Source of the DNA: Escherichia coli
GTDB lineage: Bacteria > Pseudomonadota > Gammaproteobacteria > Enterobacterales > Enterobacteriaceae
Direction: 5' to 3' (one strand)
Length of the DNA: 64,000 bases
NCBI RefSeq assembly: GCF_030384885.1
Contig: NZ_CP128613.1
This document shows, in pieces, positions 4,901 through 48,489 of this stretch. Below the pieces are notes generated by a model. The model was given only the letters and a program-made list of their open reading frames with translations, was not told the DNA's origin and did no database searches. The translations under genes and the position numbers were made by a program. Numbering within the stretch: position 1 is the first letter of the stretch; each line of letters opens with the position of its first letter.

Positions 4901-6245
4901 TCTGCACACGTTTCGAGGCATTGCCTTTGTTATCGTAGGCAACTGCTGAAATCGCATAATAATTGTCTTTGCCTGGACGGTAAGCCGGGAGCGTTACTTG
5001 CCACTGACTACCCTGACCGGTAATTTTGCCACCTTCAGCCAGTAATGACGGCGCTTCCCACTGCACATTTTTCAGTCCGTGAGTTGCTTTGCTGACCACA
5101 AGCCCCAGGGAAACCGTCTGACCGCCCTTGCCTTCAATACGCTCAGGCAGAGCAATACGGATCACTTCAGATTTGCGGTACTCAAGAACGATGTTGTTAT
5201 TACGCTCAACCAGGTCATAGCGGCTGCCTGCCAGCATTCGACGCTCGCGAATGCTGTCTGTATCGAGTTGTTTTTGCAGAGGTTCGCCAATTCGGTAGTT
5301 AACTTCCAGGCCAAAGCGAGTGTCATTCTCACCACTCTTGCCCTGCTTATGCCCGGCGCTCAGTGTCAGAAGAGGCACTGGTGTATAGGTTACCTCGGCA
5401 GAAATAGCATGCGGGTCTTTCTGGCGTTTATCTTTACCAAACAGCCCGACTTCATCGCCATAATACTGCTCATACATCAGGCTTGCGCCAAGCTGCGGCC
5501 AGGCAGGTAAATAGCCCTCAGCACGAATATCCCAGCCATTCGCCGGGCGTTCCTGATAATCCTCAACATCCGGTGATTTTTTCCAGCCAGAAGCCCGGAT
5601 ATAACCATTGGCGCTCAGTTTCAAATAATCACGCCAGTATTCCGCACCAACACCAATGCGGGTATGACTACGGGATAAATCATGATCGATAAAAGTATTC
5701 ACCCCCGCCATCCAGTCATTTCCTGAAAAATGACGCCAGCCAAAACCAATATTTGACTGAGTACGATCGTCGGTACGATGTATTGCCCCCTGAGTGAACA
5801 ACATATTTGTCGGCGTGTCATAAATCGGATAAAGCATTTCCAGCGAAGAGTCCTTCAGCGAGAAATTTTTATCGACATTCAGTTTGACGCGCGCAGTACC
5901 ATATTTCCCGAGCCACTCCTGTATTTCCTGGTTAGCTTTAGCTGTGGCCATTCCGGTAATAAAGTTACGTGTCGCATCGCTATCTGGCTGACTGCTTAAA
6001 AATGTCCCGGCATTTGCGGCAAACGATGCGACATTTTTCTCCACATTATTATCAGCAGCTACCGTGGTATTTTCCATGCTCAACCGTGGCTGAACCGCAT
6101 GCTGCGCGCGTGCTGCCATTACTGGGGTAAAGGTGACAGCGAGTGGGAAAAGAACCTGAACAGAGATATTTGCCCACGCCACGCAGCGGGCCAGAACTGA
6201 ATAACGAAATCGTGGTTGTTTATGACCTGTTTTATAACGTGACAT
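1992..6245 (-). CDS. fdeC: intimin/invasin-like adhesin with beta-barrel anchor and tandem Big domains
   Basis: 1417-aa ORF; N-terminal beta-domain then repeated Ig-like modules (TVTLTA.D..GNP.. repeats); matches recollection of FdeC/EaeH. Confidence 0.85.
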   Translation of the reverse strand: MSRYKTGHKQPRFRYSVLARCVAWANISVQVLFPLAVTFTPVMAARAQHAVQPRLSMENTTVAADNNVEKNVASFAANAGTFLSSQPDSDATRNFITGMATAKANQEIQEWLGKYGTARVKLNVDKNFSLKDSSLEMLYPIYDTPTNMLFTQGAIHRTDDRTQSNIGFGWRHFSGNDWMAGVNTFIDHDLSRSHTRIGVGAEYWRDYLKLSANGYIRASGWKKSPDVEDYQERPANGWDIRAEGYLPAWPQLGASLMYEQYYGDEVGLFGKDKRQKDPHAISAEVTYTPVPLLTLSAGHKQGKSGENDTRFGLEVNYRIGEPLQKQLDTDSIRERRMLAGSRYDLVERNNNIVLEYRKSEVIRIALPERIEGKGGQTVSLGLVVSKATHGLKNVQWEAPSLLAEGGKITGQGSQWQVTLPAYRPGKDNYYAISAVAYDNKGNASKRVQTEVVISGAGMSADRTALTLDGQSSIQMLANGNEQKPLVLSLRDAEGQPVTGMKDQIKTELTFKPAGNIVTRTLKATKSQAKPTLGEFTETEAGVYQSVFTTGTQSGEVTITVSVDDMSKTVTAELRATMMDVANSTLSANEPSGDVVADGQQAYTLTLTAVDSEGNPVTGEASRLRLVPQDTNGVTVGAISEIKPGVYSATVSSTRAGNVVVRAFSEQYQLGTLQQTLKFVAGPLDAAHSSITLNPDKPVVGGTVTAIWTAKDAYDNPVTSLTPEAPSLAGAAAVGSTASGWTNNGDGTWTAQITLGSTAGELEVMPKLNGQDAAANAAKVTVVADALSSGQSTVSVAADRVKAGESTTVTLVAKDAHGNAISGLSLSASLTGTASEGATISSWTEKGDGSYVATLTTGGKTGELRVMPLFNGQPAATEAAQLTVIAGEMSSANSTLVADNKTPTVKTTTELTFTVKDAYGNPVTGLKPDAPVFSGAASTGSERPSAGNWTEKGNGVYVSTLTLGSAAGQLSVMPRVNGQNAVAQPLVLNVAGDASRAVISDMAVKVNNQLANGQSANQVTLTVVDSYGNPLQGQEVTLTLPQGVTSKTGNTVTTNAAGKADIELIATVAGEHSITASVNNAQKTVTVKFNADASTGQANLQVDTAAQKVANGKDAFTLTATVEDKNGNPVPGTLVTFNLPRGVKPLTGDNVWVKANDEGKAELQVVSVTAGTYEITASAGNNQPSDAKSITFVADKTTATISSIEVIGNRAVADGKAKQTYKVTVTDANNNLLKDSEVTLTASPASLNLEPNGTATTNEQGQAIFTATTTVAAKYTLTAQVSQDNGQVSTKTAESSFVADDKNAVLAASSDVQSLVADGKSTAKLEVTLMSANNPVGGNMWVDIQTPEGVTEKDYQFLPSKNDHFVSGKITRTFSTSKPGVYTFTFNALTYGGYEMKPVTVTITAVDANTATGEEAMK

Positions 6246-42573: not shown

Positions 42574-44031
42574 GTGTCTGAACTGTCTCAATTATCTCCA
42601 CAGCCGCTGTGGGATATTTTTGCCAAAATCTGTTCTATTCCTCACCCGTCCTATCATGAAGAGCAACTCGCTGAATACATTGTTGGTTGGGCAAAAGAGA
42701 AAGGTTTCCATGTCGAACGCGATCAGGTGGGTAATATCCTGATTCGTAAACCTGCTACCGCAGGTATGGAAAATCGTAAACCAGTCGTCTTGCAGGCCCA
42801 CCTCGATATGGTGCCGCAGAAAAATAACGATACCGTGCACGATTTCACTAAAGATCCTATCCAGCCTTATATTGATGGCGAATGGGTTAAAGCGCGCGGT
42901 ACCACGCTGGGCGCGGATAACGGCATTGGTATGGCCTCTGCACTGGCGGTTCTGGCTGACGAAAACGTGGTTCACGGCCCGCTGGAAGTGCTGCTAACCA
43001 TGACCGAAGAAGCCGGTATGGACGGGGCGTTCGGCTTACAGAGCAACTGGTTACAGGCTGACATTCTGATTAACACCGACTCCGAAGAAGAAGGTGAAAT
43101 CTACATGGGTTGTGCTGGGGGTATCGACTTCACCTCCAACCTGCATTTAGATCGTGAAGCCGTTCCGGCTGGTTTTGAAACCTTCAAATTAACCTTAAAA
43201 GGTCTGAAAGGCGGTCACTCCGGCGGTGAAATCCACGTTGGCCTGGGTAACGCGAACAAACTGCTGGTGCGCTTCCTTGCGGGACATGCAGAAGAACTGG
43301 ACCTGCGTCTTATCGATTTCAACGGCGGCACACTGCGTAACGCCATCCCGCGTGAAGCCTTTGCGACCATTGCTGTCGCAGCTGATAAAGTCGACGCGCT
43401 GAAAACGCTGGTGAATACCTATCAGGACATCCTGAAAAACGAGCTGGCAGAGAAAGAGAAAAATCTGGCCTTGTTGCTGGACTCTGTTGCGAACGATAAA
43501 GCTGCCCTGATTGCGAAATCTCGCGATACCTTTATTCGTCTGTTGAACGCCACCCCTAACGGTGTGATCCGCAACTCCGACGTAGCAAAAGGCGTGGTTG
43601 AAACCTCACTGAACGTCGGTGTCGTGACCATGACCGACAACAACGTAGAAATTCACTGCCTGATCCGTTCTCTGATCGACAGCGGTAAAGACTACGTGGT
43701 GAGCATGCTGGATTCGCTGGGTAAACTGGCAGGCGCGAAAACCGAAGCGAAAGGCGCATATCCTGGCTGGCAGCCGGACGCTAATTCTCCGGTGATGCAT
43801 CTGGTACGTGAAACCTATCAGCGCCTGTTCAACAAGACGCCGAACATCCAGATTATTCACGCGGGCCTGGAATGTGGTCTGTTCAAAAAACCGTATCCGG
43901 AAATGGACATGGTTTCTATCGGGCCAACCATCACCGGTCCACACTCTCCGGATGAGCAAGTTCACATCGAAAGCGTAGGCCATTACTGGACACTGCTGAC
44001 AGAACTGCTGAAAGAAATTCCGGCGAAGTAA
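42574..44031 (+). CDS. pepD: cytosol non-specific dipeptidase (aminoacyl-histidine dipeptidase)
   Basis: 485-aa ORF recognised. Confidence 0.95.
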   Translation: MSELSQLSPQPLWDIFAKICSIPHPSYHEEQLAEYIVGWAKEKGFHVERDQVGNILIRKPATAGMENRKPVVLQAHLDMVPQKNNDTVHDFTKDPIQPYIDGEWVKARGTTLGADNGIGMASALAVLADENVVHGPLEVLLTMTEEAGMDGAFGLQSNWLQADILINTDSEEEGEIYMGCAGGIDFTSNLHLDREAVPAGFETFKLTLKGLKGGHSGGEIHVGLGNANKLLVRFLAGHAEELDLRLIDFNGGTLRNAIPREAFATIAVAADKVDALKTLVNTYQDILKNELAEKEKNLALLLDSVANDKAALIAKSRDTFIRLLNATPNGVIRNSDVAKGVVETSLNVGVVTMTDNNVEIHCLIRSLIDSGKDYVVSMLDSLGKLAGAKTEAKGAYPGWQPDANSPVMHLVRETYQRLFNKTPNIQIIHAGLECGLFKKPYPEMDMVSIGPTITGPHSPDEQVHIESVGHYWTLLTELLKEIPAK

Positions 44032-44041
44032 TTACAATAAT

Positions 44042-44071
44042 GTCCACGCCTGCGGGCGTGGACTACTGTTT
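44042..44071 (+). terminator. pepD terminator
   Basis: GTCCACGCC-TGCGG-GCGTGGAC hairpin then T-rich tail. Confidence 0.5.
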
Positions 44072-44078
44072 GAAGCCA

Positions 44079-44321
44079 ATGGCTATCTATATCGAAATAA
44101 CAAAACATTATGAAACTCATGAAAAGGTCGCATATTTATATAGCTGCGACCATATTTCATGGGGAGAATTTCTGATCACCAAAGAAAGTTTTGCGCTGGA
44201 ATCCGTGAAAGAACTTAAGGGTGAAAAGCAGAATTTTTATATGTTCAGAGCCTGGGGCAAAGTCAGGAAAACATACTTAGCCACGGGAGAATTTCCCCAG
44301 GAAACATGTTACGCCGCTTAA
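44079..44321 (+). CDS. hypothetical small protein (low confidence)
   Basis: About 80-aa AT-rich ORF after pepD terminator; no motif. Confidence 0.2.
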   Translation: MAIYIEITKHYETHEKVAYLYSCDHISWGEFLITKESFALESVKELKGEKQNFYMFRAWGKVRKTYLATGEFPQETCYAA

Positions 44322-44329
44322 AGTCAGAA

Positions 44330-44854
44330 TCATTTTTTCACGCGTTTTACATTTACCATTTTAGCATTACGCCTGCACCACATGGCAATGGCGGCAGCTA
44401 CTAATGCCAGTTCCAGTAAAAACGACCAGTGTAATAAAAAATTGAGCCACCACGGATGATGTACCGCCGTAATATGAAAGAGTGCAAAGGGTTGGTTAAC
44501 GAAAGGCATCAACCACCAGATATCACCGACCAGCGTATCAAGCAACAAATGCACAATACCATTCAGGCAAAACACCACGCCCAGCCACGCCGGAAGTTTA
44601 TTCTTCGCAATTGCGGCCCAGACTAATGTCGCCGCCAGCAGAGCAAACCATAATAATGGCCAATGAGACGGGTAAAGATGATGATGTCGTTGCCCGTTAT
44701 CCACCAGATAACACCAGAAGAGATCAAAATCGGGTGCAACGGCCCCGACTAAGCCAATAACCATCGCCCACCGCGCATGACGAGAAATCAGCGGTAGGCG
44801 TTTCACTAAAGTACAAGTTATTAAATATCCAGCCGGAAGATGACCGATAAACAT
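44330..44854 (-). CDS. membrane-bound metal-dependent hydrolase-like protein (YdjM/DUF457-like)
   Basis: Hydrophobic His-rich ORF; start chosen at Met with AAAGGA RBS (alternative Met at 44869). Confidence 0.55.
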   Translation of the reverse strand: MFIGHLPAGYLITCTLVKRLPLISRHARWAMVIGLVGAVAPDFDLFWCYLVDNGQRHHHLYPSHWPLLWFALLAATLVWAAIAKNKLPAWLGVVFCLNGIVHLLLDTLVGDIWWLMPFVNQPFALFHITAVHHPWWLNFLLHWSFLLELALVAAAIAMWCRRNAKMVNVKRVKK

Positions 44855-44916
44855 GACGAATCCTTTCATTTTTGCCCGCCGCTTTCACGAAGAAAACGGC
44901 GGGTGACATTCCTCTA

Positions 44917-45531
44917 TTACACAGCGATAAAAGCCATCCCTGTAAACGTCCGTCGCGGGTTGCCACGTTCAATCTGGTGATGGAACATTCGCCGCTGCGA
45001 TTTCAGCGCCGCGCTATTTTCCTGTCGCTGTTGTTCCAGCTTCCAGGCAATCAGTAATCGCGCCAGCCGTTTGTTAGCATGCTGGCTGCGCTCTGACTGA
45101 ACCTTCACGCTAATCCCGGATGCCAGATGCGTGGCGCGTACCGCCGAGTCGGTTTTATTGACATGTTGACCGCCCGGCCCCGACGAACGCAGCGTCTCAT
45201 AATGGATCGCATCGGATTGCTCCTGCTCATCTGAAGTAAAACGCCCAATGCCCAGAAACCAGTTTTTGCGCCCATGATGAGGGCGATACGGACTCGGACA
45301 AATCCACTGGATAGTGCCACACCAGCTTTCGCTTAGTGCCCATGCGTTGTCGCCATCAAGTGAAACCAGCGCCGAACGCAGTGTGTCAGAGTAGCGACCC
45401 GTTTCTGTTTCCAGCACCGTTACCGCGACGTCTTGTCGGGCAGCTTCTTTAATCAGCCTGTCCAGTGCCTTTTTCACTGCGAGACAACATTCTTCCGGCC
45501 CCTGAGCTGAGGAGAGTTGTAGCAAGATCAT
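44917..45531 (-). CDS. prfH: peptide chain release factor homologue PrfH
   Basis: 204 aa from MILLQ; contains [16 protein letters not shown] (GGQ motif); start overlaps rtcB stop (ATGA). Confidence 0.85.
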
Positions 45532-46667
45532 CCTTTTTTCCCTCCACTGTTTTTGAGCGTCAGCACCGGACGCAGTCGCGCGACAGGAATAATTAAACCG
45601 GCCTGCACCAGACATTGCACCACACTTTCAGCCGATTTATAGGCTTGTGGCGCTTCTTCAAAGATGAGTTGTTTATCGCGACAAATTACCCGACTGCCAA
45701 GTTCAGTACGTGAGAGTTGCGTCGCCGTGTGTTTCGCTGCCAGACGCCCTTTACACTCGGTGCGCCCCCATTTACGCCCTGCCCCATGCGCCAGCGAGTG
45801 GAGCGTTTTTTCGTTCGCAACAGGCTTAACCAGCCAGGAGTAATCACCGCGTGAACCGGGAATAATCACCAGACCGTTGTCATCCGGCGTAGCCCCTTTA
45901 CGGTGTAACCATCCTTGTTGATCGCCGATTCGACATGCGCTAACAAAGTTATGCGCCACATCCAGAACCGAATTTCCGTTGGCCTTAACTTGTTGCATTA
46001 TGCGCAAAGCGATCAGCTGGCGATTAATACGCGCAAACGCCAGCGCATCGTCATGTTCCGCAATATACCGTAGCGCGTCGTCACTGCCTTGAGGCAAACC
46101 ATGATGCGAAAACGAGGCAATATGCCGCTGTAAAATAGACTGCCCCAGCCCCCTCGAGCCGCTATGAACCAGCAGTTGCAGATGCTGCGCATCCAGACCT
46201 GCCAGTGCAAACAGTTCCGCGTCGATGATTTGATCAACTTTTTGCAGTTCTGCGAAGTGGTTTCCGCCACCGATAGAGCCAAGCGCGCAGCGCCACGGAT
46301 GCTGTGCAAACGCTGACGGCAGGTTTTCCTCCAGCCAGCTTTCTTCAGCAACGTCATCCAGCGCAGATAATCGCTTTTCAAACTTATCGGCGTTGTATTT
46401 ACGCGCGAGAATATCTGTTTGCCATAGCGCCATGCCGCAGCCGATATCATTGCCGACCAGTGCCGGGTAAAAACGGCCTACGGAGAAGAACGCTGCGCCA
46501 ATCGGATAGCCGCGTCCGGGGTGTAAATCTGGCATCCCTACTACGCGTTGCATGTCGGGTAAATTTGCCGAGGTGTGTAATTGTTGGATCGCTGAACTCT
46601 CGATCCACAGGTCATCAGATGCGATGGTAAATACCGCATCGGATAAGGGACGAATATATTTGCCCAT
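45528..46667 (-). CDS. rtcB: RtcB-family RNA ligase paired with PrfH (RtcB2-type)
   Basis: 379-aa ORF with RtcB-like His/Cys metal-site motifs (..GGNHFAE.., ..HSGSRG.., ..AHGAGR..); translationally coupled to prfH. Confidence 0.8.
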
Positions 46668-46984: not shown

Positions 46985-47437
46985 TTAGTGTTGCGGTTTA
47001 TATCGCATATGAAAATTAGTAAACCACGCTCCCCGGCATTCAACGCGCTGCTGCTTAACTGTCTGAAAACCATAACGTTCAAAAAAGGGTTTTGCGGTTA
47101 TGCTGGCATCTACCGTAAGTTCGGATTCAGACTTAATCAAAGGTTTTAACAAAGCGCTGGCAACCCCGCAGCGGTTGTATTTCGGATCAACAAATAACAT
47201 ATCGATATAATGCTCAATGCAGGTAATAAAGCCGACCAGTTGTGTATTAATAACCGCAACCCGCACTTGTGATTTCGCGAGTTTCTCTTTCCATCGATGT
47301 TCATCAATCTGCGCCCAGGCGGCAATTTGTTGTGGTGAATAATGCTGACTAGCGGTCATCGTAACCGCTCTAATAAAAATAGCGCATAGTTGCTGAAAAT
47401 CGCCAGGCTGATAGTTCCTTATTTGTATATTATTCAT
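46985..47437 (-). CDS. yafP: GNAT-family acetyltransferase
   Basis: 150-aa ORF; start overlaps dinB stop. Confidence 0.85.
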
Positions 47438-48489
47438 AATCCCAGCACCAGTTGTCTTTCCATTTGCGGATCAAGCAACGTCACATGCAGCCCCACCAGT
47501 CGCACACCGCGCCCGCCACGGCGTTCATCCCAGGTTTTACGCGCAGTGGCGATCAAGTCAGCTTTATTCAGCCGCGGCCAGACGTGTTCCTGGGTGGTTT
47601 GCTGAAAATCGTCGAACTTTAATTTCACCCCCTGGCGGGCAATCAGTAAATCAGGTTTTACCTTTGCCAGACGACGTTCAAGTTCCGGGTACAACCGCTC
47701 GATGATCGCTTCACATTCAGACCAGTGATGAATATCTTCCGCCATCGTGCGTTCTACACCGACGGATTTTCGCAACCTTTCGCTGTTAACGTCGCGCTCG
47801 TCAATGCCCTGACTACGCTCCCACAAAATGCGGCCAAATTTGCCAAAGCGTTTAAGCAATGTCACCAGATCACACTTTTGTACATCGCCGCAGGTTCGTA
47901 GCCCCATCGCTTCCAGTTTTGCCGCCGAGACTTTGCCGACACCGGGAATTTTTGCCAGCGGTAAGGTTTGCAGAAATGCCGGAACTTCTGCTGGCGTAAT
48001 CACAAACTGACCGTTGGGTTTATTCATGTCTGAGGCGATTTTGGCGAGAAACTTGACCGGCGCAACGCCCGCAGACGCCGTCAGTTGCAGCTCGTTGAAG
48101 ATCGTCTGGCGGATTTCCTGAGCGATAAGGGTCGCAGAGCCGTGGCAATGGACACTATCGGTGACGTCGAGATAGGCTTCATCCAGTGACAGCGGCTCAA
48201 TACGCGATGTGTAGCGAGAGAAGATTTCGCGGATATGATTTGACGCTTCTTTGTAGGCGTCAAAGCGCCCTGGAAGCAAGGTGAGATGCGGACACAGTTT
48301 GAGCGCCATGCCGGTTGGCATTGCGCTACGCACGCCAAATTTACGCGCAGGATAATTGGCGGTGCTGATCACCCCCCGGCGTTCGCGGCTGCCGCCAATA
48401 GCAATAGGGATATCGCGCAGGGCGGGATTGTCGCGCATCTCCACCGCGGCGAAAAAGCAGTCCATATCCACATGAATGATTTTACGCAT
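47434..48489 (-). CDS. dinB: DNA polymerase IV (Y-family)
   Basis: 351-aa [29 protein letters not shown]... Confidence 0.95.

Follow-up and report, generated by a model that had tools for sequence, protein, structure and literature searches.

A small gene after pepD in Escherichia coli as a probable orphan member of a widespread toxin–immunity family

A small gene in a variable segment between pepD and prfH

We examined a small open reading frame (ORF) in a 64-kb stretch of Escherichia coli DNA (hereafter the window, meaning the whole stretch that was analysed), where the gene order is crl, frsA, gpt, pepD, the small ORF, a gene for a YdjM-like hydrolase, prfH, an rtcB-family ligase gene, yafP, and dinB. 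The pepD gene (42574..44031, + strand) lies upstream of the small ORF and on the same strand, and is followed by a hairpin at 44042..44063, 16 nt beyond which the ORF begins. The ORF itself comprises 80 codons on the + strand, from ATG at 44079 to TAA at 44319-44321 (44079..44321 including the stop), and its stop lies 8 bp from that of the convergent YdjM-like gene (44330..44869, - strand), which encodes a membrane protein named ‘metal-dependent hydrolase’ by PGAP and matching Pfam PF04307 (E = 8.7e-9). The initial annotation, made from the letters of the DNA, had described an AT-rich, compositionally atypical frame of about 80 codons directly after the pepD terminator, wedged between pepD and a membrane hydrolase gene, and this description stands in all its parts: the G+C content of the ORF is 0.391, compared with 0.514 for pepD and 0.502 for the window, and its GC3 is 0.41 versus 0.56 for pepD. 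The region from 43950 to 44950 is 100% identical to the corresponding DNA of E. coli strain 2013C-4282.

Alignment of the window with GF60 and with ST131 delimits an accessory segment of about 886 bp (44036..44921) that holds the small gene and the YdjM-like gene. Most E. coli have in its place a pepD-prfH spacer of about 55 bp with a different hairpin, and in the ST131 form prfH comes directly after pepD. The segment is carried by 325-328 of 5,426 complete E. coli genomes (~6%), in which the small ORF is single-copy and chromosomal; we found no plasmid or phage copies, the lone ‘plasmid’ match being a mislabelled chromosome. Of 328 carrier genomes, 327 have the ORF intact across 80% or more of its length, and the damaged copies that occur are either frameshifted or truncated (P0005, P0014, and P0018) or cut by IS1 (L022). 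Escherichia loci have either both the small gene and the hydrolase gene, adjoining prfH, or neither. The YdjM-like gene stands beside the small gene only in Escherichia loci, and is probably a neighbor outside the module described below, with no functional relationship between the two. Near the hydrolase stop, a 7-bp indel leaves the window protein with a different and longer C-terminus (...NVKRVKK) than the GF60-type form (...NA); the gene lies directly downstream of prfH on the same strand.

Start codon and expression signals

The RefSeq/PGAP call places the start of the small gene at an ATG at 44040 (L001 4091..4372, equivalent to window 44040..44321), yielding a 93-aa ‘hypothetical protein’ (WP_000106440.1) with a 13-codon in-frame extension (44040..44078, + strand). 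The hairpin stem begins with the G of this ATG. Homologs of 78-82 aa begin at a methionine equivalent to that at 44079, and the 80-aa homologs of E. albertii, L011-type E. coli, and Salmonella lack the 13 codons and have different upstream DNA, such that the extension occurs only in the window-type arrangement of E. coli. Comparison of the homologs thus points to 44079, the start chosen in the initial annotation, as probably the true start codon, and to the extension as probably untranslated; this position agrees with the conserved start better than that of RefSeq.

Signals for expression of the gene are poor. The hairpin, terminator-like on both strands, has a nine-pair stem with seven G-C pairs (dG -23.8 kcal/mol, z -3.25), and its tails are TACTGTTTGA on the + strand, where the U tract is weak, and ATTATTGTAA on the - strand; it is also kept in the E. 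albertii and L011-type E. coli forms of the locus. The only bases before ATG 44079 that resemble a Shine-Dalgarno sequence are a weak GAAG at 44072..44075 (+ strand) with a spacing of 3 nt; in Salmonella the start codon is preceded by AGGAG at 7 nt, in L011 by AGGGA at about 8 nt, and E. albertii likewise keeps the native ribosome-binding region. A search of 43800-45000 found no sigma-70-like promoter, and transcription would thus have to enter from pepD through the hairpin, making read-through from pepD the probable source of any transcript.

The small gene of E. albertii and L011-type E. coli is separated from the pepD hairpin by an ORF of 171 aa (L011 4458-4973; L008 4450-4965). This ORF encodes a protein with two predicted transmembrane (TM) helices and no family match, has been seen only in Escherichia loci, and is absent from the window, where it would fall at approximately 44064-44078. 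Because the window sequence just 5′ of 44079 (CTGTTTGAAGCCA) is similar to the leader of the 171-aa ORF (TGTTCAAGGATGAACA), the window arrangement looks like a deletion derivative of the longer form, in which the 171-aa ORF was removed from start codon to start codon. Such a deletion would have swapped a good Shine-Dalgarno sequence (AGGGA in L011, AGGAG in Salmonella) for the weak GAAG. The 171-aa two-TM protein might be a further immunity-like membrane protein. We also considered it as the missing toxin of the small gene and rejected this candidate, as it is unrelated to the Rhs C-terminal domain described below, has two TM helices, and is confined to Escherichia.

A conserved protein family and its selection regime

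The initial annotation had left open whether the frame encodes a small accessory protein or is a non-coding spacer, proposing conservation of the frame in relatives as a check. A word-indexed search of 5.8 billion proteins recovered 22 relatives, which include a protein of Salmonella enterica with 60% identity and, from E. albertii and other Escherichia, proteins of 80 aa; in all these groups the 80-aa frame is intact. A family profile run with HMMER against all 1.84 billion cluster representatives (E <= 1e-3) enlarged the family to 56 representatives at 50% clustering, nearly all of 77-84 aa and matched end to end. The window protein retains all seven of the invariant or nearly invariant family residues (M1, A2, K9, E12, Y19, G29, and P73). 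AlphaFold2, given an alignment of 54 sequences, predicts a confident fold of four strands, a long helix, and a fifth strand (beta1-4/alpha/beta5; pLDDT 95.8, pTM 0.84), superseding an earlier run on eight close sequences (pLDDT 70). Searches of Pfam, NCBIfam, and PADLOC with the small protein and 54 family members returned no meaningful match (none below E 0.01), single-sequence and profile searches of PDB sequences with the small protein returned none (profile E >= 0.36), and comparison of the predicted fold with solved structures gave no significant match. By sequence, the 80-aa family is outside the named immunity families (Imm1-Imm74, SUKH, CdiI, and others).

Substitution patterns argue for the protein and against the spacer. 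With the window allele as reference, dN/dS by the Nei-Gojobori method was 0.10 against E. albertii, 0.13 against the L011-type E. coli allele, and 0.19 against Salmonella, and fell between 0.10 and 0.14 among Escherichia lineages. In contrast, the off-frames gave dN/dS of 0.52-2.19, 1.50-1.60, and 0.78-1.24 in the same three comparisons and contained 3-9, 4-6, and 4-12 stops, respectively. Differences fall mostly at third positions (14 of 21 against E. albertii, 20 of 32 against the L011 allele), and synonymous change is saturated at the deep distances (dS 1.4-3.5). Taken at the level of sequence, these patterns are those of a real protein-coding gene under purifying selection across genera.

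Among closely related alleles, the pattern is different. Between the window and GF60, the small ORF shows no synonymous and five non-synonymous differences, compared with 33 and 2 in the last 300 codons of pepD and 20 and 8 in the YdjM-like hydrolase. The flanks lead one to expect 7.4 silent differences in the small ORF where none was observed (Poisson P = 6e-4), and the relative excess of non-synonymous change is significant by Fisher’s exact test against both the hydrolase (P = 0.005) and pepD (P = 3e-5). Several close E. coli allele pairs reach dN/dS of 0.4-0.6, and the comparison of the window with the alleles L002, L018, L020, and L021 shows the same shortage of silent and surplus of amino-acid-changing differences relative to pepD and the hydrolase gene. 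In the E. coli alleles compared, the altered residues of the 80-aa protein lie within 36-37, 47-54, and 64-68, and alleles that differ by 4-10% in their flanks share the first ~110 nt of the ORF without a single difference. In this small sample, the deficit of silent change could reflect a recently spread block combined with diversifying selection, which an immunity protein would be expected to show, or relaxed constraint.

A putative toxin domain linked to the family, and the probable orphan gene of the window

The genomic setting of the Salmonella homolog suggests what the family does. In the locus L005, the homolog (6001-6243) begins 10 bp after, and on the same strand as, a gene for a 1,683-aa Rhs protein, and carries the AGGAG Shine-Dalgarno sequence noted above. 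The Rhs protein comprises DUF6531, 15 RHS repeats, the RHS core, the sequence NNPTQWVDPLGL with its DPLGL motif, and, directly after this, a 141-aa C-terminal domain (L005 5566-5987). In Rhs proteins, the variable toxin domain begins at the PxxxxDPxGL motif, and rhsI, the gene for the cognate immunity protein, comes directly after the toxin-encoding rhs-CT (Poole et al. 2011, PMC3150448). In three other loci (L004, L006, and L007), the homolog instead follows a 167-aa fragment made up of the end of the Rhs core and the same C-terminal domain; judged by their sequence, these are classical orphan rhs-CT/rhsI cassettes.

The association extends far beyond Salmonella. The first relatives of the toxin domain, at ~50% identity, came from metagenomic arrays that also hold genes for Tox-SHH, Tox-MPTase4, Tox-ART-HYD1, SUKH, and Imm26, and in these arrays each toxin relative is followed by a 79-83-aa protein homologous to that of E. 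coli (hhalign probability 94-95%, E = 2e-8 and 2e-7). A profile search brought the toxin domain family to at least 269 proteins, spread over five or more phyla, with taxa including Proteobacteria, Firmicutes, Cyanobacteria, and Actinobacteria. The domain is borne on Rhs proteins in Salmonella and Xenorhabdus and on proteins with PT-TG (PF14449) and WXG100 (PF06013) domains in Bacillus and Paenibacillus; in cyanobacteria, it stands alone (~122 aa) and is paired with a 79-aa partner. The downstream gene matches the family HMM in such distant hosts as Bacillus (E = 1.6e-17), Nostoc (2.5e-33), and Xenorhabdus (3.1e-25). We measured this linkage in species-representative genomes, where the toxin alignment yielded 42 loci from Gamma-, Alpha-, and Deltaproteobacteria, Firmicutes, Cyanobacteria, and Actinobacteria: in 38 of these, the toxin domain is followed after 5-121 bp by a same-strand gene of the 80-aa family; the other four, one of them at a contig end, are exceptions. 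The order toxin-then-immunity gene is thus conserved in other taxa.

Varied N-terminal carriers are a hallmark of polymorphic toxin domains. Given the linkage of the two genes across phyla on several delivery scaffolds, we interpret them as a polymorphic toxin–immunity pair, in which the demarcation motif and the unrelated scaffolds mark the partner domain as a polymorphic toxin domain. Searches of Pfam, NCBIfam, PADLOC, and PDB sequences with this domain returned no match. Its conserved motif (H..F ... RFDPD..IA.AW.RL ... HEYFES.FE ... Y.TAH; alignment A6) includes invariant residues (H..DP..W.R..D..HEYFES.FE..Y..H) that suggest an enzyme; in the numbering of the 141-aa domain these are H72, D83, P84, W92, R94, D104, H110, E111, Y112, E114, E118, Y125, and H129. 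Searches of a literature library for the accessions and sequence motifs returned no paper.

No such toxin was found beside the E. coli gene. The toxin HMM had no match within the 64 kb of the window or in the Escherichia loci examined; the Salmonella toxin DNA had no blastn match in the 5,426 E. coli genomes, a search that would miss toxins as divergent as the rest of the family; and there were no Escherichia entries among the eight first toxin matches, the best 120 of 269, or the 42 loci from species representatives. As no toxin gene was found near the small gene, we label it an orphan, and from the DNA-level search and the listed protein matches it is most likely an orphan immunity gene. Orphan immunity genes can be expressed and protective (PMC3150448), and an islet of them has been described in S. 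Typhi (PMC7400221). Two other orphan cases of the family occur. In an enterobacterial contig (L023 1079-1321), a 48%-identical homolog stands alone between the convergent genes queE and queD, by its sequence a second, independent orphan insertion between convergent genes. In the second case (L025 5828-6822), the gene is flanked by a 39-aa remnant of the toxin C-terminus on its upstream side and a SUKH_6-like gene on the other; the surrounding element has AntA and a D5-type primase and has the look of a mobile vehicle for orphan immunity genes.

Comparison with known systems places the gene nearest to immunity proteins of polymorphic toxins. Like RhsI of Dickeya dadantii 3937 (RhsIA and RhsIB) and of the Salmonella Rhs orphan modules, the protein is small and predicted to be cytoplasmic, its Salmonella homolog follows a same-strand rhs gene with a PxxxxDPxGL-type boundary at a distance of 10 bp, and orphan cassettes of rhs-CT plus immunity gene exist for the new pair. 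Unlike RhsI, it belongs to a separate sequence family without a match in Pfam, NCBIfam, or PDB, and stands alone in the window, far from any rhs locus; the position downstream of a toxin gene is thus found for the family and not in the window itself. Like the genes of orphan immunity islets (the T6SS/CDI islet of S. Typhi, PMC7400221; the orphan cdiI of E. coli EC93, PMC3150448), it has no detected cognate toxin, is low in G+C, and is variably present among strains, whereas the window holds a single gene between convergent genes instead of an array, without an integrase or mobile-element signature. Immunity proteins of T7SS LXG/PT-TG toxins offer a third parallel, since the same 80-aa family occurs behind WXG100-PT-TG toxins in Bacillus, Paenibacillus, Lysinibacillus, and Listeria; the E. 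coli copy, however, is distant from these (~25-35% identity) and unlinked to a secretion locus. The cyanobacterial arrangement of toxin domain and 79-aa partner, a stand-alone two-gene pair, recalls type II toxin-antitoxin systems, but in the new pair the toxin gene comes first, which is the order of polymorphic toxin modules; no DNA-binding domain is recognizable in the small protein; and the window has no toxin.

We consider it likely that the small ORF is a genuine orphan immunity gene, a member of the 80-aa family paired with the Rhs-, PT-TG-, and WXG100-borne toxin domain. The gene would encode an 80-residue cytoplasmic protein with the predicted beta1-4/alpha/beta5 fold. The toxin domain would be delivered by Rhs proteins and type VI secretion in Salmonella and Xenorhabdus, and by PT-TG/WXG100 proteins and type VII secretion in Bacillus and its relatives. 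By analogy with the tested Rhs-CT/RhsI and CdiA-CT/CdiI pairs, the 80-aa protein would bind the toxin domain and thereby block it. The E. coli copy, having no detected toxin of its own, would then probably provide acquired protection against neighbors that inject the toxin, such as Salmonella strains, in the way proposed for orphan immunity genes elsewhere (PMC7400221). The E. coli and Salmonella proteins are only 60% identical; cross-protection against the Salmonella toxin may occur, but an immunity protein as a rule protects against its cognate toxin alone (PMC3150448). On this reading the gene would be unrelated to pepD. Besides this modest identity, the observations that count against the immunity reading are the weak GAAG, the lack of a promoter-like site, a start 16 nt after a terminator-like hairpin, the mostly non-synonymous change among close E. 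coli alleles, and the existence of frameshifted, truncated, and IS1-cut copies.

Several of these observations also feed the main alternative, that the small ORF is a decaying relic, formerly an immunity gene and now a poorly expressed, drifting leftover of an islet that once held the gene for the 171-aa membrane protein. The window form lacks both that ORF and the native Shine-Dalgarno region, no promoter-like site was found for the gene behind the hairpin, frameshifted and IS1-cut copies occur, the segment has been lost from or was never present in 94% of E. coli genomes, and the within-species values (dN/dS 0.4-0.6; five non-synonymous and no synonymous differences from GF60) could indicate relaxed constraint. 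Decay is difficult to reconcile, however, with an ORF intact in 327 of 328 carriers, with retention of every family-invariant residue, and with dN/dS of 0.10-0.14 deep within Escherichia, where no toxin is known; moreover, the non-synonymous excess over both flanks suits diversifying selection at least equally well. We therefore hold the relic to be rather unlikely, if the foremost rival of an orphan immunity gene still in use.

Two other explanations carry far less weight. That the frame is no gene at all, being a chance AT-rich ORF, an sRNA derived from the pepD 3′-UTR, or an antisense target of the hydrolase transcript, would fit its composition, its place directly after the hairpin, its poor expression signals, and the invariance of its first ~110 nt between alleles with diverged flanks. 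But the frame is held at 60% protein identity despite saturated synonymous change, third-position changes dominate, and the protein belongs to a family in five phyla with a confident predicted fold; on these comparisons we regard a non-coding reading as refuted as a full explanation, and give it almost no credence. It is scarcely more probable, and still very improbable, that the protein is a partner of the YdjM-like hydrolase or of the rtcB-prfH ribosome-repair pair, for example a regulator or antitoxin. The small and hydrolase genes do travel in Escherichia as one ~886-bp segment beside prfH, yet they are convergent, on opposite strands; most E. coli rtcB-prfH loci lack the small gene; and outside Escherichia the family never adjoins a YdjM, PrfH, or RtcB gene, adjoining the toxin domain instead.

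As an orphan immunity gene, the small ORF provides a proposed role, together with a corrected start codon, for a ‘hypothetical protein’ of ~6% of complete E. coli genomes. Orphan immunity genes are a known arrangement and the concept is already established, such that the gain lies in a new family and a testable case, not in a new principle: an uncurated and broadly spread family pair, absent from curated libraries, in which at least 269 toxins have a closely linked partner of ~80 aa. If the E. coli copy does protect against Salmonella Rhs toxins, it would represent natural acquired immunity across genera in gut Enterobacteriaceae.

A wider reading, which we regard as doubtful, is that the whole pepD-dinB interval is a variable islet of interbacterial defense, composed of RtcB2-PrfH, the orphan immunity gene, and membrane proteins, with immunity alleles diversifying under attack by Salmonella-type Rhs toxins, as their surplus of amino-acid changes and shortage of silent ones relative to the flanks would then reflect; the YdjM-like hydrolase and the 171-aa two-TM protein may then be further immunity factors. 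The rtcB-prfH pair has been tied to the repair of ribosomes cut by colicin E3 (PMC9223846, PMC9304027), and with it the window would hold two anti-toxin devices side by side.

Several minor features of the neighboring genes were also recorded. The prfH and rtcB-family genes are intact and overlapping in the window (44917-46667, - strand). Beyond them, yafP and then dinB follow at 46985-48489 (- strand) without the yafN-yafO toxin-antitoxin pair, which is present in GF60. The dinB gene is an intact ORF of 351 codons in the window; in strain 2013C-4282, identical in other respects, the annotation marks it as frameshifted. Finally, in E. coli isolate 648 (L022 1479-2414), an IS1 copy truncates the small gene, and on the far side of the insertion the locus lacks the hydrolase gene, prfH, rtcB, and part of yafP.
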